Source: a virus (taxonomy: Duplodnaviria; Heunggongvirae; Uroviricota; Caudoviricetes). From it: 41,556 nt of DNA. Under the pieces are notes generated by a model, which saw only the letters and a list, made by a program, of their open reading frames with translations, searched no databases and had not been told where the DNA came from. Where the stretch lies: IMG/VR virus record IMGVR_UViG_2802429245_000005, one strand, 5' to 3'. Positions within the stretch are counted from its first letter, which is position 1. Every line of letters begins with the position of its first letter. The position numbers and the translations under genes are program-made. Below, piece after piece: positions 2,734 to 26,899 of the stretch.

Positions 2734-3138
2734 TCATGCGTTACCATCGTCTTTTCTCCCCGGAATTAACTCGCGTGGATTATCGGAACGGTGGTAGAGC
2801 CATATACCAATACGCACAGCAACAATTGCTGACACGAATGCGCCAGCAGAGAAAACAATCCCTTTTTCAAAAGAGTCCTGCGTGATAGTAGGGATCAGGC
2901 TGGCTATGCCGATAAGAATTGATGCTGCTGGTTTATAAAAAAGAAGGCCGCAGAGAAAGCTAAGCATCGACAAGAGTACACGACGACGAATGGGATACTC
3001 TACCGCAGAGGTAACAAAAATTACCGCTCCAGCCAAAGCCCCCAAAGCAACCTCAGGAGGAACTCCTGCTATCACCGCCGCCAGAGAACTCATGCTAAGC
3101 CACTGATTTAAAGTTTCACTGGTTAGTTGAGCTGACAT
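2734..3138 (-). CDS. Multi-TM membrane protein, putative holin
   Basis: ATG at 3136-3138 preceded by GGTGG. About 134 aa with 3-4 predicted hydrophobic helices, immediately upstream of the endolysin. Confidence 0.5.
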   Translation of the reverse strand: MSAQLTSETLNQWLSMSSLAAVIAGVPPEVALGALAGAVIFVTSAVEYPIRRRVLLSMLSFLCGLLFYKPAASILIGIASLIPTITQDSFEKGIVFSAGAFVSAIVAVRIGIWLYHRSDNPRELIPGRKDDGNA

Positions 3139-3358
3139 GTTTTCCACCGTTTATATGCATAACTACCTCCTGAACAGTAAAGCATTATGCATGATAAACC
3201 ATTTATGGTTTTTTGTTACTTCAACATCGTCAATCCCCTGTTTTCATGCCGATAATAAGGCTCACCTTTTACATAACACTGAAGAAACAACAGTACAGAA
3301 ATGATTCAAACTATGGAGATCGGGTTGAATACCGCGCCATCAAATGGCGCGGTAGCGA

Positions 3359-3684: not shown

Positions 3685-6426
3685 TTACACAGCACAAATC
3701 CTGATCGTTGCTGTGATATCAGTTTCAGTGCCATTATTGAGATATAACCTACCGCCTACAATTGACATCCCAATTTTGGTAGAAACTTCTTCATCTGCAG
3801 ATGTCACCACCACGTTTGTTTTATTGTAATTACCAAGCGGAGATTCATCAGTCGAATGCCCTGGCCTCAATATCATTCCTACACCTGCAAAGAAATTAGG
3901 GTTCCCATTATTTATAACATCCACACAATAAGATAATGCGCTTTTACTAAGTGGGATGGATTGACTTGTATGTGCCTTAACCCACATTTCCCATACGTAT
4001 TCACTTTTACGTATCGCCCCCTCACATGAACCAGATGCATGGAATAACTTTCCTGATGATACAGTGTTATTGGTGCCAACAAGAATCATCTGATTTCCAC
4101 CACCAAAGCCAAAGTTATCACCAAGAGATGGTCCACCATTAATCCTTAACATATATGCATCAGTACTGCCTGATGAGGCGTCAGAGTTATCTATATATAC
4201 AGTGCAATCACTTATAAGAACGCCATCAATCTTATCTGGCGCAACAGTATTAGTTTGGACAACGACGAACTCTCTGGTGGTAGATTTTGCCGAACAACCT
4301 TTAATAATTGTTGGTGTTTCAAGAGTATATGTTTGAGTAATAAAAATGAAATTACTAGGACGAAGCTTCCGATTAACAGCATTTGTTGCTTTCCACCATT
4401 TATTGCTTGATTCGGTTGTTTCGCTAAAGCCATCAATATAGTGAGTATCGGTAATAGTAATTCCGCTACCATAATACAAACGAATCGGAAGGTTGCTAAA
4501 TCCTCTAATCTCGCAACCAGATACTATCTCATTAAAACCACGTATAGTTGCGCCATAAAAACAGTCAACTGCCACATTGTCTTTATATTTAGACTCTGCG
4601 GCACCACCATGACTACCAAACCCATAGGAAAATTCAGTCCATCCTTCCGATGGAAATATAATCCCACCAGTATAACCAGTTCCGCCACCACGCATTGTAA
4701 TGTTGGTTACATTATTGTAGAGAGAACTCCAGTTACTCCCTCCAATATCAACACCACGCCTACAACAAGATGCATTGATATTGTCCACAGTGCAGTAACT
4801 GCTATTGGAAACAGAAACAGCATTACCTGTACCACCATCACCATTGAAAACTCTATTGATTCCATACAGAGATGTATCACGAACAGTGCATCTTAAGCAG
4901 CCTAACAAGGTAATCCCAGCATTCGGGAAATTTTCCACACTAGCGAAACTGGCAATACCGTTTACGCAATATTCGAAGACAACCCCATCATAAGCTTTTT
5001 GTCCGCTAGTTGCATTGGTAACTAACCCGTGTATCGTCCCAACATGAAAATCTCCAGAAATATTAAATGTAGCAGGATAGACAGCCCAGGCCTCAGCTTG
5101 CCTAACCAAACGAAATGTATCTCCTGCAGCAGGTTTATTTGGGAATCCAGTGTCAGCATTACTACCAATAGTAAATGTTTTTGTGTCATCATCATATGCT
5201 GTAACCATTTTGGTTATACCAGCATTATCTCCCGTTAATCCAAGAATTTTATAGAGTGCATCACGAGGTGGTGATGTCACTGAGAAATTTGTAGATGTAA
5301 ATGATTGCCCACTAGATGCGCCAGTAACTGTAACTGTAATATTCCCTCCTGAACGGTAGTAATAATATGCATCCTGATCTAATGTCACATTATTTCCACT
5401 AAGTGAAACGACTTCAACAATTTGCCCTTCCTGCCAACTTCCTCGGTTATCTCCACGAACAAGGTGGTTATTACGAATAACAAGCAAATCTCCGACAGAA
5501 ATATCAGACACATCATCAAGAGTCACAGTCTTTTCGCCCAATGATATATCTCTCGTTATGAAATTATGCAATTTAGTACTTGCAATTCCACCAAGCTTTA
5601 TTGCTGAACCTTCATATCCTACAACATTATTTGTGCAGAGCAATTCAACCTTTCCTGATGCCACCCAATCGAAGCAACCATATGGAATGGAAATATCTAT
5701 TTGTGAAAACAGGTACTTTCCTGCTGTCCATTCCAAACGCTTTCCGTTAGATGCGCAGTAAATGATGGCATTTGTTATTGCGTCTGTATCGTCAGTAATG
5801 CCATCCCCTTTTGCACCAAAATCGCGAACATTGACGATATCCCGCATCTTATCCTGGAACGTTCTGTATACTGCTCCAGAACCATACTGAATAAACAAAC
5901 CAAAACCACCAACAACTCCGGCGATTGCAGCATCGACATAATTACGCATTGAGCGATTATTTACAGCATCCTGCTCAAGTGATGGATCTGCAAGGTTAGA
6001 AATTCTGTTTTGTTTTGCATCGTAATATTTTGCAAGCAGAGAGGGCTTCATCAATGCACGTCTGAACCACCCAAAACATTGCTGGATCAGCATCGTCAGA
6101 TAGTCAAAGGCATCCTCATGCACTTCGGGGAAAAATTTTCCCTGATTGCGAAGGTCTGTCTCCTGCACTACATCAAGCACACGATCTATCGTAATTCGCC
6201 ATCCAGCAGCAAGCGGAGACGGAAGAACCACAGAACCGCCACTATAAGTGCCCGCCCCAGTTACCGTATAACCGGTATCCAGAACCAATTCTGTTACGTT
6301 CCCGTTCAGGTCAGACACCTGAACAACCAGGTCTGATTTTCTGAAAATTCGAAAAGTATACGGAAACGATGTCGTAACGCCGTTACCTGTGTATTCGTTG
6401 TGGTCAACTTCGGTTGAGACCGTCAT
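3685..6426 (-). CDS. Tailspike with N-terminal virion-attachment domain and pectate-lyase-like beta-helix receptor-binding/depolymerase domain
   Basis: 913 aa. RBS GGAG 9 nt upstream of ATG (6424-6426). VRDFGAKGDGITDDTDAI motif typical of right-handed beta-helix glycanases. Downstream two-thirds is AT-rich by eye. Confidence 0.85.
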   Translation of the reverse strand: MTVSTEVDHNEYTGNGVTTSFPYTFRIFRKSDLVVQVSDLNGNVTELVLDTGYTVTGAGTYSGGSVVLPSPLAAGWRITIDRVLDVVQETDLRNQGKFFPEVHEDAFDYLTMLIQQCFGWFRRALMKPSLLAKYYDAKQNRISNLADPSLEQDAVNNRSMRNYVDAAIAGVVGGFGLFIQYGSGAVYRTFQDKMRDIVNVRDFGAKGDGITDDTDAITNAIIYCASNGKRLEWTAGKYLFSQIDISIPYGCFDWVASGKVELLCTNNVVGYEGSAIKLGGIASTKLHNFITRDISLGEKTVTLDDVSDISVGDLLVIRNNHLVRGDNRGSWQEGQIVEVVSLSGNNVTLDQDAYYYYRSGGNITVTVTGASSGQSFTSTNFSVTSPPRDALYKILGLTGDNAGITKMVTAYDDDTKTFTIGSNADTGFPNKPAAGDTFRLVRQAEAWAVYPATFNISGDFHVGTIHGLVTNATSGQKAYDGVVFEYCVNGIASFASVENFPNAGITLLGCLRCTVRDTSLYGINRVFNGDGGTGNAVSVSNSSYCTVDNINASCCRRGVDIGGSNWSSLYNNVTNITMRGGGTGYTGGIIFPSEGWTEFSYGFGSHGGAAESKYKDNVAVDCFYGATIRGFNEIVSGCEIRGFSNLPIRLYYGSGITITDTHYIDGFSETTESSNKWWKATNAVNRKLRPSNFIFITQTYTLETPTIIKGCSAKSTTREFVVVQTNTVAPDKIDGVLISDCTVYIDNSDASSGSTDAYMLRINGGPSLGDNFGFGGGNQMILVGTNNTVSSGKLFHASGSCEGAIRKSEYVWEMWVKAHTSQSIPLSKSALSYCVDVINNGNPNFFAGVGMILRPGHSTDESPLGNYNKTNVVVTSADEEVSTKIGMSIVGGRLYLNNGTETDITATIRICAV

Positions 6427-6530
6427 GTTAAATCTCCAGATAGTCGCAGCACCCGTTGCGCCGCATATCTGGTTATTCTATTACCTGAAAAACCACATAT
6501 GGATAGAAAGACTGTAAATACGAATAGATA

Positions 6531-6545
6531 TTACCTTTCAGGTAA
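6531..6545. promoter_or_regulatory. Palindromic operator-like site TTACCTTTCAGGTAA
   Basis: Exact TTACC-N5-GGTAA between the divergent tailspike (start 6426) and gene 6622. Confidence 0.6.
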
Positions 6546-6621
6546 TTTGCAAAACGTGCTGGATAGCAAACAAATTATTTGCTACTGTATAAATATACAG
6601 TTATTGCATGGAGAAGATAAG

Positions 6622-6879
6622 ATGCAGCAGTATCACTATCCACTGGAAGACGGATTTACCGAAAGGATTCACACGCCGGGAGGCGTCAGATCACTGGTGG
6701 AGGGATCGCACTTGATGAAATTACTCCGGGATCTCGATAAGGATGGATTTAATGTCGATGGCCCACTTGCCGAACTGACTGCACTGATTAACTACGTCAC
6801 CAGCTCACAGATGTCTATGCAGGATCTGCAAACACATCTCGACTATTGTGCCGAACAATTACGAAAACAAACCCGGTAA
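6622..6879 (+). CDS. Small protein homologous to the C-terminal domain of the BRO-N antirepressor at 8028-8723
   Basis: ATG at 6622 with GGAGAAG upstream. Aligns with the antirepressor C-terminus (LMKLLRDLDKDGFNVDGPLAELT...DLQTHLDY versus LMNLLNQLQEDGHDVSGAAAELT...DIQTHAEY). Confidence 0.55.
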   Translation: MQQYHYPLEDGFTERIHTPGGVRSLVEGSHLMKLLRDLDKDGFNVDGPLAELTALINYVTSSQMSMQDLQTHLDYCAEQLRKQTR

Positions 6880-6886
6880 ATTTAAA

Positions 6887-6902
6887 GGCCGCAAGAGCGG
6901 CC
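6887..6902. terminator. Hairpin between convergent genes 6622-6879 and 6902-7630 (possible bidirectional terminator)
   Basis: GGCCGC-AAGA-GCGGCC with T-rich flanks on both strands. Confidence 0.4.
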
Positions 6903-7630
6903 TATCGTTTCGCTTTGTGCTCGTCCCAGCACGTTTTGCACCATGCCATTAAGCCGTCCGCATTTTGATTATTAGGGTAAAAGCTGGTTCGTTTTCTGCG
7001 GACATTACAAATTGGGCACCACTTCATATGACGTGTATTCTTTGGGCCATCGAGACACCTTGCACACCACTTAGTCAATCCATCTGGATTTTTTGACGAT
7101 TTCCTGAATTTTTCATATGGAAGGTTTATTCTGCATCGCAAGCACTGCTTGCTACCGCTTGAAACTCTGTTAGCTGATTCTTCTTTTGGCGGCGATACAG
7201 AAGATATTCTTGCTGGCTCTGATACTGCCTGAGGTGCTTTTTTAAATGACTGAGACGATATGTCATCACCAGGGAATCTTCCATGATATGCCGGACGCGT
7301 TGACACTCCAGGTGGAAGCTCAGCTGTAAACGGCTTTGGCTGAATCAGTTGCCTCTCTTTTGCTAACTCCTGCTGTTTATAATATGTCTGGATTACCGCA
7401 CTATCATAAGCAGGAGGTGCGGAAATATTAGGCGCATTACCTCCAGTTTTTTGAAACTGAGTAGAGGTGTGTTCTATCACCTGTGTACGATTAATCGTTA
7501 TCTCCCCATCTTCGGTCTTTATCGTTTTGTTATGATTAACGACCGTACGATCAGAGATCTTAGTCTTGTTCTGGTTGATAACGTAAATAATCACCGTAAC
7601 CACACCAACAACTATCCAGAAAACTTCCAT
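6902..7630 (-). CDS. Membrane-anchored protein with two tandem CxxC...WCxxC zinc-ribbon-like repeats
   Basis: RBS GAGGAAAAG before ATG (7628-7630). N-terminal TM helix, Pro/Ser-rich linker, repeats CLRCR...DGLTKWCARC and CPICN...DGLMAWCKTC. Operator motif at 7651-7665. Confidence 0.6.
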   Translation of the reverse strand: MEVFWIVVGVVTVIIYVINQNKTKISDRTVVNHNKTIKTEDGEITINRTQVIEHTSTQFQKTGGNAPNISAPPAYDSAVIQTYYKQQELAKERQLIQPKPFTAELPPGVSTRPAYHGRFPGDDISSQSFKKAPQAVSEPARISSVSPPKEESANRVSSGSKQCLRCRINLPYEKFRKSSKNPDGLTKWCARCLDGPKNTRHMKWCPICNVRRKRTSFYPNNQNADGLMAWCKTCWDEHKAKR

Positions 7631-7758: not shown

Positions 7759-7792
7759 ATTTACATCGCACTCCTCTTGTGCCATAGTAATC

Positions 7793-7816
7793 GGGCACTG
7801 GCAAAATCCAGTGCCG
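7793..7816 (+). other. Perfect 8-bp stem-loop (GGCACTGG / CCAGTGCC) in the antirepressor leader
   Basis: Read directly; lies between the operator at 7744 and the terminator at 7851. Confidence 0.5.
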
Positions 7817-7850
7817 GGATTGGCGTCCCGGATTACTAAAAGGCGCATTC

Positions 7851-7870
7851 ACCGCGCAAGCGGTTTTTTT
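7851..7870 (+). terminator. Intrinsic terminator-like hairpin plus T7 tract in the antirepressor leader
   Basis: ACCGC-GCAA-GCGGT followed by TTTTTTT. Confidence 0.5.
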
Positions 7871-8027
7871 ATGCGTATAGCACGGCCACATTCGTATTAT
7901 GGTGGGCTGTGTGGGGGCACCGAAAGGTGCGCCGGGTCCTTTTAGCCGGTTACGCCAACCCTGCACAGTTCACCACCAACCGATTGGCGTCGGTAGTGGT
8001 GATTAACCAGACTAAAAGGTAACCACT

Positions 8028-8723
8028 ATGACAGCTACAAAAAGCACGTCCATTTTTTCTTTCGAATCCCAAGCCGATATACGGGTAATCGTCATTAATG
8101 GTGAGCCATGGTTTATCGCTTCAGATGTTTGTCGGGCTATAGGCATAGCAAACCATCGAGATGCTGTTCGAAAACTTGATGATGATGAGAAGGGCGTCGC
8201 TTCAACCGACACCCCTGGCGGTGAGCAAGAATCGATCATTATCTCCGAGTCAGGCCTCTACACACTGATCCTCCGCTGCCGCGATGCGGTGACACCAGGC
8301 ACTATCCCCTACCGCTTTCGTAAATGGGTTACAGGTGAGGTTCTTCCTCAGATCCGCCGCACCGGAAGTTACATTAAAAACTCGCTCCCGCAGGAAGAAC
8401 GCATAAAGATGGTTGCCGACCAGGTTGCCAACGCCACGGCGTCAGCAGTAATGCAGGCGATGAAGATAGAGAACAAAACCTACAGCGCCCCGCTGAAGCC
8501 AGGATACCGCAGTCTGATTCACTCGCCGTCTGGTGTTCTCGGCCTGACGGAGAACTCACTGCTGATGAATCTGCTGAACCAGTTACAGGAAGACGGGCAT
8601 GATGTATCGGGCGCGGCGGCGGAGCTGACCACCATGTTCTGCTACATCGTCGGTGTGAGTAAATGCCTGCGTGATATCCAGACGCATGCGGAGTACATCA
8701 ACGACAAGGCTGGGTTCTTCTGA
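8028..8723 (+). CDS. Antirepressor, BRO-N (Ant-type) N-terminal domain plus C-terminal domain
   Basis: N-terminus FSFESQADIRVIVINGEPWFIASDVCRAIGIANHRDAVRKLDDDEKG matches the Bro-N fold signature. RBS AAGG before ATG at 8028. Confidence 0.8.
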   Translation: MTATKSTSIFSFESQADIRVIVINGEPWFIASDVCRAIGIANHRDAVRKLDDDEKGVASTDTPGGEQESIIISESGLYTLILRCRDAVTPGTIPYRFRKWVTGEVLPQIRRTGSYIKNSLPQEERIKMVADQVANATASAVMQAMKIENKTYSAPLKPGYRSLIHSPSGVLGLTENSLLMNLLNQLQEDGHDVSGAAAELTTMFCYIVGVSKCLRDIQTHAEYINDKAGFF

Positions 8724-8830: not shown

Positions 8831-9040
8831 ATGGGATTTTGGTTCGCTCGTACAAAAACGAGGGATAATGCACCCAGCCCTCAGGCAAAAAATGCAGAAG
8901 TTCCGGCGTCAGCGCAGGTTAACAAGCGTGGTGGAGTATATATCTCATCACAGCAAATTTCTGAGCTTCCTGAGGTTAAGGAGATGCGTCGTCTCGCTGC
9001 TGCAATTGTTAAACAGGATCTTGCCACTGTAAGGAAGTAG
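8831..9040 (+). CDS. Small hydrophilic protein, first gene of an operator-controlled accessory cassette
   Basis: Strong RBS GAGGAGGAG before ATG at 8831. Operator motif at 8790-8804. Stop TAG overlaps the GTG of the next ORF. Confidence 0.55.
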   Translation: MGFWFARTKTRDNAPSPQAKNAEVPASAQVNKRGGVYISSQQISELPEVKEMRRLAAAIVKQDLATVRK

Positions 9041-9906
9041 TGTTGCTAGCTCTTCTAATTATCCCAATCCTGGTTAGCGGTTATATTATGATAACCGCTA
9101 ACCAGTATCATTATTTCCGTTTATACCGACACGAAGGCCAGCTTCTTTATATGAAAGTAGCGGCACTAGGTACATATTGCCTTGTTGCATCAGTAATAAT
9201 TGCAGCCGCTATAAAATATAAATGGCCTGATTTTCACCTAGTTCACGATATGGTGGAAACTTTTAATGTAACATCAAAACCAGAAACAGATAGAATTTAC
9301 ATGTGGCTGCTTCTTCTCTCAGCCACATCCATTTGCTTCTCTTTGTGTTATGTGTCTGTTGTGTGGGTGAAAGATTTTCTTCTTGGTTGTTTTTATAAAC
9401 GTGATATTTACGAGCAAAAAACAGAGGCAATGAAGGCCAGAGTACTGCGAAAAACTTACTCGCAGGGTTCTTTAGACTTACTATTGCTTGATGCTATTGA
9501 ATCGGATCCTAAACGACCAATGCTGATTACTTTATCATCAAACAAAGTGTATGTTGGAATAATAAATGGTTCTGGTGAACCAACGGAAAATCAGGGTCCG
9601 CATCAGCACATATCTTTTGTTCCTTTAATGTCAGGATACAGGAACAAAGAAAACTTATCTGTCACATTCACTAATGCTTATCCAGGAGAAATACAGGTCA
9701 AGCGGACTGCAGCAATAAGAGGAATTAGCAGAAAGAAAGTGCCAGGACTTGAGATCATGGTGTCTATTGACGAAATAAGTTATATATCATGGTTTGATTT
9801 TGAAGTATATAAAGCAACAAATAACAAAGTAGAATCCAGGGGGCACGTTATTCGTGTTACCAAAAATGGAAGAAATATATATCAAAGAAATAGCAAAAAA
9901 GAATAG
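9040..9906 (+). CDS. AT-rich integral membrane protein (three N-terminal TM helices plus soluble C-terminal domain); accessory gene
   Basis: 288 aa ORF. GTG at 9040 is coupled to the upstream stop; alternative ATG at 9088 lies in the loop of an 11-bp inverted repeat. AT-rich by eye. Intrinsic terminator directly after the stop. Confidence 0.6.
   Translation: MLLALLIIPILVSGYIMITANQYHYFRLYRHEGQLLYMKVAALGTYCLVASVIIAAAIKYKWPDFHLVHDMVETFNVTSKPETDRIYMWLLLLSATSICFSLCYVSVVWVKDFLLGCFYKRDIYEQKTEAMKARVLRKTYSQGSLDLLLLDAIESDPKRPMLITLSSNKVYVGIINGSGEPTENQGPHQHISFVPLMSGYRNKENLSVTFTNAYPGEIQVKRTAAIRGISRKKVPGLEIMVSIDEISYISWFDFEVYKATNNKVESRGHVIRVTKNGRNIYQRNSKKE
9074..9101 (+). other. 11-bp perfect inverted repeat around a candidate start codon
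   Basis: TTAGCGGTTAT-ATTATG-ATAACCGCTAA; the ATG at 9088-9090 is in the loop. Confidence 0.5.
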
Positions 9907-9927
9907 CCCGCGCCGCGGGCTTTTTTG
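9907..9927 (+). terminator. Rho-independent terminator after the accessory membrane-protein gene
   Basis: CCCGCG/CGCGGG stem followed by TTTTTT, immediately after stop TAG at 9904-9906. Confidence 0.7.
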
Positions 9928-9998
9928 TGGACGAAACAAAAGTCAGTGCTACACTCATTGACGCCACATTGAGATGGCTTATAGATGGAAATTTCACA

Positions 9999-10160
9999 AT
10001 GAAAAAAGCATTTGCTGCACTGTTCGTTTTGTTGTCTCTGGTAGCTTCAACTCAGGCCTTTGCCGGTCGTTGTCAGCACGACAGCGATACTGCTGCTGAC
10101 GGCTCCCGCTGCGGTGGGCGTTCTGCGGATTCCCGCCCGGGCGGCGGTGGCATCCGTTAA
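9999..10160 (+). CDS. Small secreted Cys-containing peptide (signal peptide plus about 31-aa mature part)
   Basis: Internal ATG at 9999 gives MKKAFAALFVLLSLVASTQAFA followed by GRCQHDSDTAADGSRCGGRSADSRPGGGGIR. RBS is weak. Confidence 0.35.
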   Translation: MKKAFAALFVLLSLVASTQAFAGRCQHDSDTAADGSRCGGRSADSRPGGGGIR

Positions 10161-10189
10161 AAACAAGGCCGCGAAAGCGTCCTGTTTGA

Positions 10190-11041
10190 TCACTGTGCAG
10201 TTTTCGCTGATCGATTTTCAGCTCTAAATTCAAGAACCGTTTCAATATTTCTTTCCTTCAGCATATCAATAACATTTTTATTCATTTGACTATCACTGGT
10301 TAATAACTGGTAAACGTTGCTTCTCTCTTTATCAGAGTTTTCTTTAACAGCTGCTTTGCATGCCAAATGCTTATTGAAATTTTCTACATCGCTAGTACAG
10401 GAATTTACGGCTGCTGATGAAATATCAGACGCTGAAGAAACACCATCATCCAAACGTTTTATAGCATTTTCTATACATGAGTTAAGGGAATAAACGACAA
10501 CTGAGCGATACCCTTCAGACGCACACCATTCTAAATTTCTTGAAGGATCGAGTGGTTTTACTTCGCTGGATTGAATTAACTTGTCAAAAACTGACTTATA
10601 TTCAATCTGTTTTTTATCTATAGCCCATACTTCAGTAGCTGATTTATAATTCCCCGTATGCCTATTAACATCAAATCCATGTTTTATAAGCAAATCTGCC
10701 CATGAAAGATTTATTGATTCATTGTTATGAGGCCATTTTCCTGTCAGAACCGCCCCCATAGACCCCATATATCCGCCATATGATGGTATAGCACCATGGC
10801 TCAGTAACTTCTCAGCAACCACAGGGCAATTAATTACATAAGAGGCGTAAAGCCCATTCCATAAAGCCCCTCTATAGTAATCGCCACGATTAGGTTCTTT
10901 TAAGTCGATAGCCTTTGATAATTGTTCACACGTTTTGCATGCATCAAAGTTATCCTTATTGCATTGCAATGAACTGGCAGCTGTAGGATTTACAGAGACT
11001 ATTGAAAGCACTATGCCAAAAAACAAATTTATTTTTTTCAT
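10190..11041 (-). CDS. AT-rich secreted/periplasmic protein of unknown function
   Basis: N-terminal signal peptide MKKINLFFGIVLSIVSVNPTAAS. Start codon sits 1 nt after the stop of the upstream 1129-aa virion protein gene. AT-rich by eye. Confidence 0.6.
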   Translation of the reverse strand: MKKINLFFGIVLSIVSVNPTAASSLQCNKDNFDACKTCEQLSKAIDLKEPNRGDYYRGALWNGLYASYVINCPVVAEKLLSHGAIPSYGGYMGSMGAVLTGKWPHNNESINLSWADLLIKHGFDVNRHTGNYKSATEVWAIDKKQIEYKSVFDKLIQSSEVKPLDPSRNLEWCASEGYRSVVVYSLNSCIENAIKRLDDGVSSASDISSAAVNSCTSDVENFNKHLACKAAVKENSDKERSNVYQLLTSDSQMNKNVIDMLKERNIETVLEFRAENRSAKTAQ

Positions 11042-11042
11042 C

Positions 11043-14000
11043 CTATTTCATCTGCTCTTCAACTTTATTTAGTAATGGTGATATCGCCCACAGATTCTGA
11101 AAAGGTAGCATTTTACGGACAGCGTGGGTTTGCTGGCTGTCAAATTCTCCGTTAAGTACACCATTTGCAACCGTCGCGGCATCACCGCCAAGATCAAAGG
11201 TAGGACCAAGTAAAGCACCAATAGCATTACGACTCTGAAACCTTGATACCGGAGGCGCACCAAACATCGCGCCAAGACCAAACCTACCGCCGCTTATGTT
11301 CTCAACGGTATTCAGCGGCTCAGAGAGCCAGCCAAGCATTCCGCCCCGGTCGATCCCCTCTTTCACAAGGTTATTCCAGCTGTAGTCAATATCGCGACCG
11401 CTTAACTTCTGTTTCATCATATAGACCATTGAGCCAAGCGCAATCGTGCCAAGCGCACCAAGATAGAATGCAGCATCGCCCTGCTGGATACCAGATACCA
11501 GCACCCTGTTATGCTGTGCGAAGATAAACGTTTTAAACTGCGTGATCATCTTCCAGCCTTCTTTACTAAAAAACAGCGGGGTATCACCTACGCCAGGCGT
11601 TACAATCACTGAGTCTACATCTTTCAGCACTGCAGACTGGAAAATCTCTCTAGCGAAACGGTCATCCCACAGATGACTATGCCCGGTTAACAGCCCGTCC
11701 ATATCCTCTCCGTGCTTCCCGAATTGCTCCCCGATTCGGCGCAGAACATCTTCATTGATGCCGACCTGTGCCATCTTCCGCATTTCACTTTTGGAGAGCG
11801 TGCCACCAGCAGAAACTTTGCGAGCCGCGTCAAGTATCCTCGACTGCACTATCATCCCGGACCATGATTTAAGTGCGCTGTTCCACTGATTCATCAGCGT
11901 CCAGTTACCGAATTTCTGCGTCATCCAGTTCAGACCTCGCTCAGCGGCGCTTCTCCGGCTATAGGGGTCAGTAAGATCCGCTATAGCCTTTGTACGCGTA
12001 GACAGGACATAATCAAGCCCAACGGCCATTTCTCGCAAATCCCTGGTTGCAATTTTCACTGAGTCCATATTTTTAAGCATGCTTACCATTGGTCCGAGAG
12101 ATTTTCTCAGGCCATGCTGCATCATCGGTCGCATCAGATCAGTTGCAGCGGAGACAGTCATTCCACCAAGCAAACGGAGGAAGTTAATATTCCTAGCAAC
12201 TCGCCCGGCACGAACAAAGAAACTGCGTGGATCTTGAGGTGCACCGTAAGTACCAAGCAGTCGATCACGCATAGCCGTAATATCCCTAATATCAGCCTCC
12301 CGTTGCTTCTCAAGAACTGCACGTCGTTTAGGTGTTTTAGCCTCTTTTATTAGCCGGGTATATTCCTCACTAACCTGACGGATTTGCTCCCCCATATCTT
12401 TACGGCCAAACTGCGCAGTCAGCTCAATTTCTGGTGCCACCTGCCGGAGATAACTTTCCATGATGTAGTTAACATCTGATTCAAGAAAATCTTCTATACG
12501 CTCATCAGGAATAAGCAGCGTTCTGCTTTTAGTGAAACCAGCCCGACCAACGAGTCTCTCTGGGATAATATCGGCTGGTACAAGCCCGGAAGGTGCGCCT
12601 ATTATTTTATTCACGATCTCGTCAGCAGCGTCCTCTGCTTCCTCTCGGGATAGAGGCTCCATCTGCTTCAGTGCTCGTTCGCGGCTTGCATTCAGCCTTG
12701 TGGTTGAATTTGCCCGTTTTTGCAGTCGGCGAAGCTCAGAACGATATTTCCGTGGATTATCCAGCAACTCCATATGGCGCTGATAGACAGGAAGCTCACT
12801 CTTTGCCTGCGCTATATCATCAAGGCGTGTTTTAAGGTCAGAGCTTTCTTTCATCATTCTTGCCTGAAGTTTTTCTGATGAAGTCTCGGCCAACTCTTTT
12901 TCTATTCTTGTAAGACGCGCCTGTGTGTCAGTCTCCTGAGATATAAGCTTATTTCGTTTATCCAGTTCTTCCATGAGTAGAATTTTTTTACCAGACCATT
13001 TCTCCGCTTCAGCGATTTCACTAGCGAGAGCATCAGCGCGCGGTGCCGATTCCTCTGCAGTTTTTAGCAATGAATTTATCCTTTCAATTCGCTGACCTGC
13101 TTTGTCAGCACCTTTGGCACTAATCCCTTGTATCCAGTTGGCAATTCGCCCTCTGAATTCAGTGCGGTCGGAAAGTATCTTATCGAACTTATAAATGCGG
13201 GGAAGATAACTTTTCGCCGTCACGACATCGATATCTTCAGGAAGGATCCCCAGTTCCTGCATACGGGCTTTTGTGGTCTCGAAAATGGGGCGGATTCTGG
13301 CGGCTGCTTGTGAAACCTCAGGAATATCACTCTGATCACCACGGCGCATAGCCATGCCAACAGCTTCATTGAAATCAATAAAGTTCATCCTCTTCACGCC
13401 GCGGGCGCTAACAGATTTGCTGTACTGCTGGTAAGCATCACGAGTAGCTTCCATCTGCTTATAAAGCATGGCGTCGTATTGCTTAATCTTAGTCTCGACT
13501 GCTGTAAACGTAGCCAACCCCTCATCATTTTTGGCGAAGAAATAGTTATTTTCGGCAAGCTGCTGGTTAATCTGACGGGAGACAAGAGATGGTGATTGCG
13601 CCAAGCGGCCAGCAGGAGTGACACTCAACGTTTTGTTAGCAAGTCCAAGTCCAGCGAGCTGTTCCTGATCGAGTGTGGTATTGAAAACCTGAGCTGCACC
13701 AATGCTTTGAGGAGAATCCATACCTCGCAAATGATTACCTACTGAGTTAACCACTGCCTCGCGCGCGCCAGGTCCAGCAAGTAGCTGTGCACCAGCACCA
13801 AGAATCCCACCAACGAGAGCATCAACAACAACGTTCGATACGCTCTCCATCGGTGAGCGAGCTTCCTGAGTGGCCTGTAATGCGGCCTCTGAAGCAACAC
13901 TGCCAGCAGCATTCGCCATGGCAAAACGCCCGGCTGTTTCTGCAATACGACCGCCACGAACGACAGCGCCGAACGGAATAAACATAGAAATCGCATTGAA

Positions 14001-14432
14001 TGGATCTGCTAATCTCATTGCTACAGAAGAGACTGTACCAGCAAATCCCAAGCCTGAATTGTATTCCATGTCAGCTCTCTGCTGATCGATTCGATGTTTA
14101 ATTGCCATTGTTTCTTCAGGCGAACCGGAGTTGATAAACGAATCTGCAAAATCTTCATAGCCTTTAATATCTGCTGCATCGTTATCAAATGGGTTATATC
14201 CTTCAACCCTGTCAAACTGACTGAAAGGAGCACTGGCAATAAAGCTACCCAGCGTGTTATCTATACGAAATGCTGCTTGTCTAGACCTTTGAACGCGTTG
14301 ATCACTGGTAAATGGGTTCACAGCAGAAAGCAAAGAAGGTGTTTCCATATAGAAATTACTGTCATCAGGTGCTGCTATTTGCTGAATATCCTCGCCAAGC
14401 AACTCTTTAGGATCCTGTTCATATATCGGCAT
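11043..14432 (-). CDS. Large internal virion (ejection/injection) protein with long charged coiled-coil region
   Basis: 1129 aa, in the late structural operon. Glu/Lys/Arg-rich coiled-coil central segment. Start overlaps the stop of the upstream gene. Confidence 0.75.
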   Translation of the reverse strand: MPIYEQDPKELLGEDIQQIAAPDDSNFYMETPSLLSAVNPFTSDQRVQRSRQAAFRIDNTLGSFIASAPFSQFDRVEGYNPFDNDAADIKGYEDFADSFINSGSPEETMAIKHRIDQQRADMEYNSGLGFAGTVSSVAMRLADPFNAISMFIPFGAVVRGGRIAETAGRFAMANAAGSVASEAALQATQEARSPMESVSNVVVDALVGGILGAGAQLLAGPGAREAVVNSVGNHLRGMDSPQSIGAAQVFNTTLDQEQLAGLGLANKTLSVTPAGRLAQSPSLVSRQINQQLAENNYFFAKNDEGLATFTAVETKIKQYDAMLYKQMEATRDAYQQYSKSVSARGVKRMNFIDFNEAVGMAMRRGDQSDIPEVSQAAARIRPIFETTKARMQELGILPEDIDVVTAKSYLPRIYKFDKILSDRTEFRGRIANWIQGISAKGADKAGQRIERINSLLKTAEESAPRADALASEIAEAEKWSGKKILLMEELDKRNKLISQETDTQARLTRIEKELAETSSEKLQARMMKESSDLKTRLDDIAQAKSELPVYQRHMELLDNPRKYRSELRRLQKRANSTTRLNASRERALKQMEPLSREEAEDAADEIVNKIIGAPSGLVPADIIPERLVGRAGFTKSRTLLIPDERIEDFLESDVNYIMESYLRQVAPEIELTAQFGRKDMGEQIRQVSEEYTRLIKEAKTPKRRAVLEKQREADIRDITAMRDRLLGTYGAPQDPRSFFVRAGRVARNINFLRLLGGMTVSAATDLMRPMMQHGLRKSLGPMVSMLKNMDSVKIATRDLREMAVGLDYVLSTRTKAIADLTDPYSRRSAAERGLNWMTQKFGNWTLMNQWNSALKSWSGMIVQSRILDAARKVSAGGTLSKSEMRKMAQVGINEDVLRRIGEQFGKHGEDMDGLLTGHSHLWDDRFAREIFQSAVLKDVDSVIVTPGVGDTPLFFSKEGWKMITQFKTFIFAQHNRVLVSGIQQGDAAFYLGALGTIALGSMVYMMKQKLSGRDIDYSWNNLVKEGIDRGGMLGWLSEPLNTVENISGGRFGLGAMFGAPPVSRFQSRNAIGALLGPTFDLGGDAATVANGVLNGEFDSQQTHAVRKMLPFQNLWAISPLLNKVEEQMK

Positions 14433-26822: not shown

Positions 26823-26899
26823 GTGGCATTAGCTCAGCTGGACAGAGCAACCGCCTTCTAAGCGGTTGGTCGCAGGTTCGAATCCTGCATGCCACGCCA
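26823..26899 (+). tRNA. tRNA-Arg, anticodon UCU (reads AGA), phage-encoded
   Basis: Cloverleaf read directly: acceptor GTGGCAT/ATGCCAC, D-arm GCTC-AGCTGGACA-GAGC, anticodon stem ACCGC/GCGGT with loop CTTCTAA, T-arm GCAGG-TTCGAAT-CCTGC, discriminator G and encoded CCA. Confidence 0.85.

Follow-up and report, generated by a model that had tools for sequence, protein, structure and literature searches.

What might a temperate phage do with a secreted protein whose gene closes the operon for its DNA-ejection machinery, and does that gene belong with a second, much smaller one that converges on it? The question is raised by positions 9999–11041 of a 41,556-nucleotide stretch of Caudoviricetes DNA (IMG/VR record IMGVR_UViG_2802429245_000005), the whole of which is called the window below. 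Here, a 283-amino-acid (aa) protein is encoded on the minus strand (10190–11041), just after the gene for an 1129-aa T7-gp16-like internal virion (ejection) protein (11043–14432, minus strand), and a 53-aa open reading frame (ORF) runs towards it on the plus strand (9999–10160). The window is that of a temperate Escherichia coli podophage or prophage, and its closest phage record is Escherichia phage EC.W1-9, with 99% identity over the locus of the 283-aa gene (accession PP445227). Sequence comparison and structure prediction suggest that the larger product is an exported, ankyrin-like binding protein long inherited with the ejection genes, and that the smaller gene is an independent mobile cassette. 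Superinfection exclusion is a possible role for the larger protein, which we put forward tentatively.

A predicted periplasmic protein with an ankyrin-like domain

The 283-aa ORF matches phrog_6118, a family of unknown function, over its full length (E = 1e-200). Codons 1–24 (10970–11041, minus strand) encode what appears to be a Sec-type (signal peptidase I) signal peptide, as the original prediction had proposed from the sequence. The N-terminus, MKKINLFFGIVLSIVSVNPTAAS followed by S, has a basic n-region, a 14-residue hydrophobic core (12-residue Kyte–Doolittle maximum 2.73) and a site with small residues at −3 and −1. In 13 homologues the corresponding segment is variable yet hydrophobic, and it ends 1–3 residues ahead of the first invariant cysteine. 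The mature protein is predicted to begin at about residues 24–26. The tripartite layout of a signal peptide is found in both the 283-aa and the 53-aa ORFs, and no lipobox ([LVI][ASTVI][GAS]C) occurs at the cleavage site in either protein or in the homologues of either. Export of the 283-aa product, with a signal peptide that is predicted to be cleavable, is called from these criteria, from the eight cysteines that are invariant in the family alignment (C27, C35, C38, C72, C173, C189, C215 and C228) and from the low confidence of residues 1–24 in the predicted structure, where the predicted local distance difference test score (pLDDT) is below 50.

A first structure prediction, from 14 sequences, had a pLDDT of 75. 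Adding standalone homologues of the N-terminal domain (N-domain) to the alignment gave a two-domain model with a pLDDT of 92.1 and a predicted template modelling score of 0.77. In this model, codons 25–160 (10562–10969, minus strand) form a divergent ankyrin-repeat-like domain with four conserved cysteines (C27, C35-x2-C38 and C72), and codons 161–283 (10193–10561, minus strand) form an orphan helical domain with four invariant cysteines (C173, C189, C215 and C228). The latter is modelled as all-helical with pLDDT 93–98. It has no sequence relatives in the Protein Data Bank (PDB) or Pfam and none that is convincing by fold, and it is seen in the prophage family only.

Several lines of evidence point to an ankyrin-like N-domain. 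The predicted structure consists of stacked helix-turn-helix/loop repeats of ~33 residues, about 2–3 in number, with an LLxxGAxP motif and, among the four conserved cysteines, a CxxC that is not the haem motif CxxCH. When the family profile of the N-domain was compared with the PDB, all 20 matches were ankyrin-type (best E 3.9e-4). Alignment by hhalign to a consensus designed ankyrin sequence gave 91.6% probability and E 8e-7 over 84 columns, and direct searching extends to multi-repeat Pfam-ankyrin proteins at E 1e-10 to 1e-4. The Pfam models Ank and Ank_2-5 do not match the 283-aa protein at E ≤ 0.1, and scans of Pfam, NCBIfam and PADLOC returned nothing significant for it. Against a viral structure library, the only matches were weak ones to ankyrins of giant viruses and poxviruses, and nothing analogous turned up among phages. 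We thus describe the N-domain, as modelled, as a divergent ankyrin-repeat-like module below Pfam detection, and the mature ~29-kDa protein as a probable combination of an ankyrin-like protein-binding domain with the orphan helical domain. The presence of four invariant cysteines in each domain suggests a protein built for the oxidising periplasm.

One UniRef entry already calls a Morganella homologue ‘Ankyrin repeat domain-containing protein’. Family libraries had not picked up the ankyrin-like nature of the phrog_6118 family; PHROG labels the 283-aa and 53-aa proteins only ‘unknown function’ and ‘membrane associated protein’. The anonymous secreted protein of the original prediction thus appears to be secreted, as proposed, and is no longer anonymous.

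An exhaustive search revealed that residues ~25–160 recur as standalone signal-peptide proteins of ~160–165 aa in many environmental bacteria, with the same four-cysteine pattern and no C-terminal domain. In five of the eight contexts recovered, the standalone gene lies directly after, and often overlaps, a gene for a monohaem cytochrome c (CxxCH confirmed). These five homologues are 25–34% identical to the N-domain, and three of their contexts adjoin a divergent EF-hand/ferric-reductase (NOX-like) gene. Cytochrome c and standalone N-domain appear from these contexts to be an uncharacterised conserved periplasmic gene pair. The arrangement, with the standalone homologue after the monohaem cytochrome c gene, is seen on metagenomic contigs (L007, L008, L010, L013 and L014), and three cytochrome-linked loci also hold a NOX5-like gene together with a glyoxalase gene. 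The contigs that carry closer standalone relatives (44–52% identity) come from the environment and are short or unannotated. One of them resembles a mobile-element region, and their contexts give no functional clue. The standalone proteins show that the module is probably natively periplasmic, and say nothing on the partner of the phage version.

Probable expression with the late operon

The start codon of the 283-aa gene had been placed 1 nt after the stop codon of the 1129-aa gene, and the junction reads exactly so. The sequence TAG-G-ATG (11039–11045, minus strand) comprises the stop codon of the gp16-like ORF at 11043–11045, a spacer base at 11042 and the ATG at 11039–11041. A TAG-N-ATG layout also occurs in Klebsiella, and the gaps are 11 nt in Serratia, 31 nt in Morganella and 25 nt in Providencia. 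The Shine–Dalgarno-like sequence, GAAGAG, is weak and lies at a distance of 14–19 nt before the start. Together with the junction layout, this makes termination-reinitiation coupling to gp16 likely. A scan of 360 bp upstream, within the 3′ end of gp16, found no sigma-70-like promoter on the strand of the 283-aa gene, and by eye no promoter ahead of the gene is kept between E. coli and Klebsiella. Co-transcription with the late (virion) operon, combined with termination-reinitiation coupling, is therefore the simplest and likely mode of expression, in line with the late co-expression that had been thought probable. We take late co-expression as the default reading from the sequence.

Between the convergent genes, a hairpin at 10161–10187 with the core GGCCGC-GAAA-GCGKCC is a candidate bidirectional terminator and a plausible end of the late transcript. 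It folds at −15 kcal/mol (z = −2.6, plus strand), and on the minus strand it is followed by UUGUUUUUAA, a U-run. A perfect version of the hairpin, GGCCGCGAAAGCGGCC (GGCCGC-GAAA-GCGGCC), is conserved in relatives. The terminator scan made no call at 10161–10187 owing to a stem mismatch in the window copy.

The gene is also as AT-rich as had been stated: its GC content is 36.7% (28% at third codon positions, GC3), versus 48.0% (GC3 43.5%) for the gp16-like gene upstream. The same difference is found in the homologues, at 35–40% GC versus 48–54% for gp16 in hosts of 50–57% GC, with low-GC Providencia as the exception.

Long association with the ejectosome genes

A search of 5.8 billion proteins recovered 22 relatives of the 283-aa protein, down to 39% identity, from Escherichia, Klebsiella, Serratia, Morganella, Providencia and metagenomes. 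Every homologue examined in the five genera adjoins the 3′ end of a gp16-like gene of 1129–1133 aa, and is followed by accessory genes that vary, a Bro-N/antirepressor gene among them, and by the tailspike gene. Identities to the E. coli copy (86, 57, 42 and 39%) fall in the same rank order as those of gp16 (90, 79, 55 and 52%), which indicates that the gene has long been co-inherited with the ejectosome genes. The pairwise ratio of nonsynonymous to synonymous substitution rates is 0.09–0.17 for the 283-aa gene, versus 0.05–0.09 for the gp16-like gene, as expected of a real gene that is evidently under purifying selection.

The gene nonetheless appears to be accessory and dispensable. Among 5,426 complete E. 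coli genomes, 120 have the same gp16 allele and 106 of these carry the 283-aa gene, in two alleles (at least 99% and ~96% identity); the remaining E. coli prophages with that gp16 allele have a different two-gene cassette in the slot. The lysogen APEC O18 carries a copy with 100% identity. The protein is encoded by only one of 50,697 phage records, and related phages without the gene form plaques or are inducible. Deviant base composition, and presence or absence among otherwise collinear relatives, give the gene the marks of a moron. Given the constant slot and the co-divergence with gp16 across five genera, it is probably not a recent one.

Alternative cargo follows gp16 in L006, L021 and L022. 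In L021 (4277–5179) and L022 (4098–5000), both E. coli prophages that share the gp16 allele, there is a divergent gene pair for a 149-aa cytoplasmic protein and a 146-aa signal-peptide protein that contains cysteines. In Klebsiella phage ST512-KPC3phi13.3, where DNA homology ends precisely with the stop codon of gp16, the gene in the slot encodes a 204-aa protein that is cytoplasmic and unrelated. Envelope proteins among the other occupants suggest that the slot after gp16 is a cargo site for envelope proteins, of which the 283-aa family is the most persistent tenant. Directly after the ankyrin-like gene, and in the same orientation, a membrane protein of ~98–100 aa is encoded in L015 (7850–8146), L020 (7838–8140) and L026 (4123–4419). 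The small membrane proteins of Serratia, Providencia and the ~96% E. coli allele are mutually unrelated in sequence.

An independent cassette for the 53-aa peptide

The convergent small ORF had been described as a signal peptide plus a mature peptide of about 31 aa that contains cysteine, and this description stands. It matches phrog_14503 over residues 1–53 of 53 (E = 2.3e-40) and converges on the 283-aa ORF. Its product consists of MKKAFAALFVLLSLVASTQAFA, a predicted 22-aa signal peptide (9999–10064, plus strand), and GRCQHDSDTAADGSRCGGRSADSRPGGGGIR, a 31-aa mature part of about 3 kDa with two cysteines, C25 and C38 (10065–10157, plus strand), both of them invariant among homologues. In comparisons of E. 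coli with Klebsiella copies, 27–28 of 35–39 substitutions fall at third codon positions and 3–7 at first or second positions, and codon changes are 20–23 synonymous versus 6–9 nonsynonymous. In one comparison, the mature part alone has 15 synonymous changes to 1 nonsynonymous. By this pattern of codon change, the ORF is a real and conserved gene.

The family comprises 57 clusters at 62–100% identity, with Escherichia, Shigella, Klebsiella, Citrobacter, Cronobacter, Franconibacter, Salmonella, Pectobacterium and Dickeya represented in the alignment. Eighteen of its 20 invariant columns are in the mature part, where CxHDxDxAxDGSRCGGRSADSRPGG is nearly invariant; the signal segment is variable and keeps its [A/S/V]-x-A site. 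Near-invariance of the mature peptide across genera suggests a conserved target in the host envelope rather than a phage target. Scans of Pfam, NCBIfam and PADLOC returned nothing significant for the 53-aa protein. The NCBI name of the family, ‘transmembrane anchored protein’, is annotation only, and we found no paper on a phage protein of that name.

Two other readings of the small ORF were considered and rejected. The first is a 77-aa reading from the GTG at 9927 (phrog_3117); this earlier start, GTG or ATG, is not conserved, and Klebsiella has an in-frame stop four codons past the equivalent position. The second takes the DxDxxxDG motif as an Excalibur-like or other calcium-binding site, which has no profile support.

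The ORF is part of a cassette of ~285–290 bp, made up of a hairpin at 9905–9921, a leader of ~75 nt, the ORF itself and the 3′ hairpin. The hairpin at 9905–9921, GC-rich with T-runs on both sides and called by the terminator scan on both strands, is the terminator of the adjacent 288-aa gene and the left edge of the cassette. It is also where DNA homology to other phages begins. As read from the sequence, a candidate promoter, TGGACG-N16-TGC-TACACT, lies at 9928–9955 (plus strand) and would place the transcript start near 9962. The promoter scan made no call there. Klebsiella copies keep TGGATG-N17-TACAAT at the same place despite an otherwise diverged leader, and across versions of the cassette the candidate reads TGGAYG-N16/17-TACAMT. 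An alternative, TTGACG (9958–9963)-N16-TATAGA (9980–9985), is not conserved in Klebsiella. The leader also contains a hairpin at 9964–9979, which is GCCAC-ATTGAG-GTGGC in most E. coli copies and CCAC-GGTTCA-GTGG in Klebsiella. Equivalents occur in L002, L006, L017, L021 and L023–L025, and Klebsiella adds an upstream mini-ORF of four codons. This hairpin may be a translational control element.

The cassette recurs beside unrelated genes in the Shiga-toxin-outbreak phage TL-2011b and in Klebsiella phages classified as Uetakevirus, and in other prophages it lies beside YafO-, DUF2335- or DUF4760-type genes. Up to 458 of the 5,426 complete E. coli genomes match a 1.2-kb query from the locus, mostly over the ~285-bp cassette alone, and the cassette occurs in roughly four times the number of E. 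coli genomes that have the 283-aa gene. One prophage with the 283-aa gene has the cassette 3 kb away from it, in the other orientation. We infer from the unrelated neighbours and from this displaced copy that the two genes are independent, and a functional pairing was rejected on the same grounds. The original prediction had grouped two secreted proteins at the operon end. Both are indeed predicted to be exported; they do not form a unit. The 53-aa gene is best described, on sequence criteria, as an independent moron cassette predicted to export a 28–31-residue peptide with one disulfide.

The phage around the locus

The minus-strand structural genes are arranged in the order portal, major capsid protein, two tail-tube proteins and then the internal virion proteins, and the genes upstream of the 1129-aa ORF match tail and internal virion PHROGs. 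The small internal virion proteins are of 154 and 181 aa. The latter is weakly T7_gp14-like, at 24.3 bits against a cut-off of 27, and T7_gp14 is recorded in relatives. A 915-aa protein matches PHROGs labelled ‘endolysin / tail injection transglycosylase’, and in the gp15-like protein the PHROG ‘transglycosylase’ segment covers residues ~243–395. The 1129-aa protein matches phrog_342, ‘internal virion protein with endolysin domain’, at E = 3.9e-233 over profile positions 192–1227 of 1235, and lacks the N-terminal muralytic part of that profile. The T7 gp14-gp15-gp16 ejectosome gene order is present in the window.

A 4.6-kb accessory block, at the start of which are the 283-aa and 53-aa ORFs, separates the gp16-like gene from a tailspike gene with a T7-gp17-like N-terminus (3685–6426). 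A holin gene is at 2734–3147, and the lysis cassette is ~7 kb from the 283-aa gene, past the tailspike. Within the block, Rfam matches above the gathering score identify isrK (7795–7870, plus strand, 77.9 bits) and a P1/P7-type C4 antisense RNA (7895–7980, plus strand, 77.7 bits), with a near-threshold match to the C4 a1/b1 target element (7782–7834, plus strand). Downstream of these RNA matches (7782–7980) is a Bro-N/antirepressor gene (8028–8723). Together, the isrK, C4 and target element matches amount to a c4-ant immunity module, immI-like in kind, with the ejectosome genes on one side and the tailspike on the other.

Other features of the block and window were noted in passing. The product of the AT-rich (37% GC) 288-aa ORF at 9040–9906 (plus strand) is a membrane protein that belongs to phrog_3630 and has no known function. 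Inside the 5′ end of this ORF, at 9070–9105 and in the codons of the first transmembrane segment, two perfectly matched 15-bp arms form an inverted repeat, CTGGTTAGCGGTTAT-ATTATG-ATAACCGCTAACCAG. The 242-aa phrog_6762 protein encoded at 6902–7630 (minus strand) combines a transmembrane helix at the N-terminus with two zinc-ribbon-like, Cys-rich segments at the C-terminus; these segments have weak matches to endonuclease VII / Lar-like PHROGs. A 126-aa ORF at 6499–6879 (plus strand) has a C-terminal domain, phrog_450, in common with the Bro-N antirepressor. A tRNA-Arg gene (anticodon TCT) is located at 26823–26899 (plus strand), between the portal and terminase regions.

Possible functions of the 283-aa protein

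Constant linkage to the ejectosome genes, in hosts as unlike as Escherichia and Providencia, favours a phage-centred target. Our tentative proposal is superinfection exclusion or protection from lysis-from-without, by binding of the proteins that sibling phages eject. Translated as the last gene of a T7-like ejectosome operon in a temperate podophage, the protein would be placed by Sec export into the periplasm as a soluble binder, where it would hinder incoming phages that use the same type of ejectosome from delivering their DNA. Its targets could be the ejected gp14-, gp15- or gp16-like proteins, or the muralytic segment of the gp15-like protein. The more specific idea of a soluble periplasmic ejectosome trap, tuned to the phage's own gp14/gp15/gp16 type and kept as the last ejectosome cistron, is doubtful as it stands. 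If true, cells making the trap, whether lysogens or cells late in infection, would be closed to sibling phages. The protein would then represent a new structural class of superinfection exclusion, ankyrin-type, soluble and co-evolving with the ejection proteins, and it would provide a direct handle on assembly of the podophage ejectosome in the periplasm.

Lysis, exclusion and lysogenic conversion had all been offered as roles for the protein. Exclusion is the one favoured, and only analogy and synteny favour it; the setting of a C4-RNA/antirepressor module between gp16 and the tailspike, parallel to the sieA-immI region of P22, is supporting context. Several observations weigh against the proposal. 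The protein has no sequence or fold similarity to known exclusion proteins in Pfam, PHROG, NCBIfam, PADLOC or structure searches. Classical exclusion needs expression in the lysogen, which is unsupported given that the gene has neither a promoter of its own nor intergenic space, and expression that is late only would better suit a product released at lysis. The persistently low GC of the gene (35–40% in hosts of 50–57%) is unexplained, and the distant standalone relatives of the N-domain are linked with cytochrome c rather than with phages.

Late expression leads directly to the first alternative, namely that the protein is made late, exported, oxidatively folded and freed at lysis, after which the ankyrin-like domain binds a target in eukaryotes or neighbouring cells. 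Shiga toxin in lambdoid prophages is likewise expressed late and released at lysis. Tight late-operon coupling with no separate promoter, the position as last gene ahead of a terminator-like hairpin, a disulfide-rich and hence stable product outside the cell, and the fact that all hosts are animal-associated opportunists fit this explanation. So does the ankyrin-like fold, for which there is the precedent of ANKp: this signal-peptide ankyrin of phages, for which a target outside the cell has been proposed, dampens the responses of macrophages (10.1101/608950). Counter to this, strict gp16 linkage and co-divergence across five genera point to a function centred on the phage rather than on the host niche, the domain is too divergent for Pfam ankyrin models, and its relatives are periplasmic proteins of environmental bacteria rather than eukaryote-like ankyrins. 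We consider a lysis-released protein of this kind unlikely.

The same periplasmic relatives can be turned to a second alternative, in which the protein, as an orphan immunity protein of ankyrin type, neutralises the periplasm-acting toxins of competitors (type VI or contact-dependent effectors, or bacteriocins), or binds a host periplasmic (haem) protein and thereby alters the physiology of the lysogen. Ankyrin-type immunity proteins are known, as is the periplasmic ankyrin AnkB of Pseudomonas (katB-ankB). Standalone homologues are translationally coupled to monohaem cytochrome c in five of eight contexts, three of them beside the NOX-like gene, and the slot acts as a cargo site for envelope proteins. 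However, the cytochrome-linked relatives are distant (25–34% identity) and without the C-terminal domain, no toxin gene is nearby, and neither PADLOC nor immunity families gave a match. The fixed position after gp16 would also be left unexplained, and we regard an immunity or host-modulating role as quite improbable.

Highly improbable is a factor in lysis timing, which, like T4 RI, would relay envelope events such as superinfection to the holin or spanin. Lysis-inhibition systems of coliphages do use exported proteins, and late-operon position and periplasmic destination are in accord with such a role. Arguing against it, the lysis cassette is ~7 kb off beyond the tailspike, the gene is missing from otherwise near-identical prophages and functional relatives, and Pfam and PHROG scans revealed no similarity to RI or antiholins. 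Finally, a fourth ejected virion protein, anchored after ejection by an uncleaved N-terminus and with its cysteines oxidised in the periplasm of the newly infected cell, would explain why the gene lies where it does, is coupled in translation and has diverged in step with the ejectosome genes, but is barely credible in view of a textbook cleavable signal peptide (short h-region, conserved small −3/−1 site) that would divert it from capsid assembly in the cytoplasm, the dispensability of the gene in related plaque-forming or inducible phages, and N-domain relatives that are ordinary bacterial periplasmic proteins.

Looking across the locus, phrog_6118, annotated merely as ‘hypothetical’, can now be described as a family of predicted secreted binders, ankyrin-like in nature, whose genes stay joined to those of the T7-type ejectosome in all five genera. 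Few interactors are known for the periplasmic stage of podophage infection, and the 283-aa protein is a concrete candidate for touching the ejectosome there. Accessory genes in late regions that are directed at the envelope are well known; distinctive here is that the position is fixed, as the last gene of a T7-type ejectosome operon, and that the phages are temperate. Such genes decide which phages co-infect a strain, and so bear on the ecology of prophages and on phage therapy against E. coli and Klebsiella. Likewise, the small peptide hardly changes between Escherichia and Dickeya even though its cassette is mobile, and such conservation suggests that the host offers it a specific, conserved target. 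Should neither protein affect phage entry or host phenotype, the locus would be another pair of conserved hypothetical prophage cargo genes.

Comparison with known systems

The closest functional parallel to the exclusion proposal is T4 Spackle, which inhibits the gp5 lysozyme of an incoming phage in the periplasm and so brings about superinfection exclusion (PMC7677548). Like Spackle, which acts on a component of the incoming virion, the 283-aa product is a phage protein with a predicted signal peptide and, by prediction, a soluble helical periplasmic binder. Unlike Spackle, to which it has no sequence or fold match, it is three times larger and has an ankyrin-like domain. Spackle is encoded by an early gene of a lytic phage, whereas the 283-aa gene is terminal in the late operon of a temperate one.

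In position, the nearest counterpart is P22 sieA, which lies between the last ejection-protein gene and the immI/tailspike region. SieA blocks the conduit formed by the ejection proteins gp20 and gp16 (PMC10883804). The 283-aa gene is similarly an accessory gene of a temperate podophage, located after the ejection genes and found in some relatives but not in others. SieA is a polytopic inner-membrane protein expressed from its own promoter; in contrast, the 283-aa protein is predicted to be soluble and secreted, no promoter was detected for its gene, and the two have no homology. P1 Sim is a signal-peptide-processed periplasmic exclusion protein, expressed from the prophage, and its gene is beside the c4-ant immunity region. 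The neighbourhood of the 283-aa gene likewise holds a C4 antisense RNA/antirepressor module, and its product has a predicted signal peptide. Unlike Sim, with its expression from the prophage, the 283-aa gene has late co-expression as its default reading, and there is no detectable similarity between the proteins.

Among ankyrin proteins, ANKp of the sponge ‘Ankyphages’ has an N-terminal signal peptide and no transmembrane domain (10.1101/608950), and the 283-aa protein resembles it as a phage protein of ankyrin type that is predicted to have these features. ANKp matches Pfam ankyrin models, whereas the 283-aa protein is ankyrin-like by fold and profile only. ANKp also lacks the cysteine pattern and the C-terminal domain, and belongs to another phage type and host. 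Our literature search found nothing relevant on periplasmic signal-peptide ankyrin proteins of enterobacterial phages or prophages. Compared with canonical ankyrins, such as designed ankyrin repeat proteins (DARPins), ASB9 and Legionella AnkH, the N-domain has only ~2–3 irregular repeats, a long insertion (GGYMGSMGAVLTGKWPHNN) and four disulfide-type cysteines including the CxxC; it is predicted to be periplasmic and falls below all Pfam ankyrin thresholds.

Phage morons, such as HK97 gp15 and lambda bor and lom, are genes of deviant composition between conserved late genes, ended by a terminator and often coding for envelope proteins. This description fully fits the 53-aa cassette. Unlike morons, the 283-aa gene is packed too closely against its neighbour for a separate promoter, and across genera it is stably co-inherited with gp16 rather than sporadically acquired.

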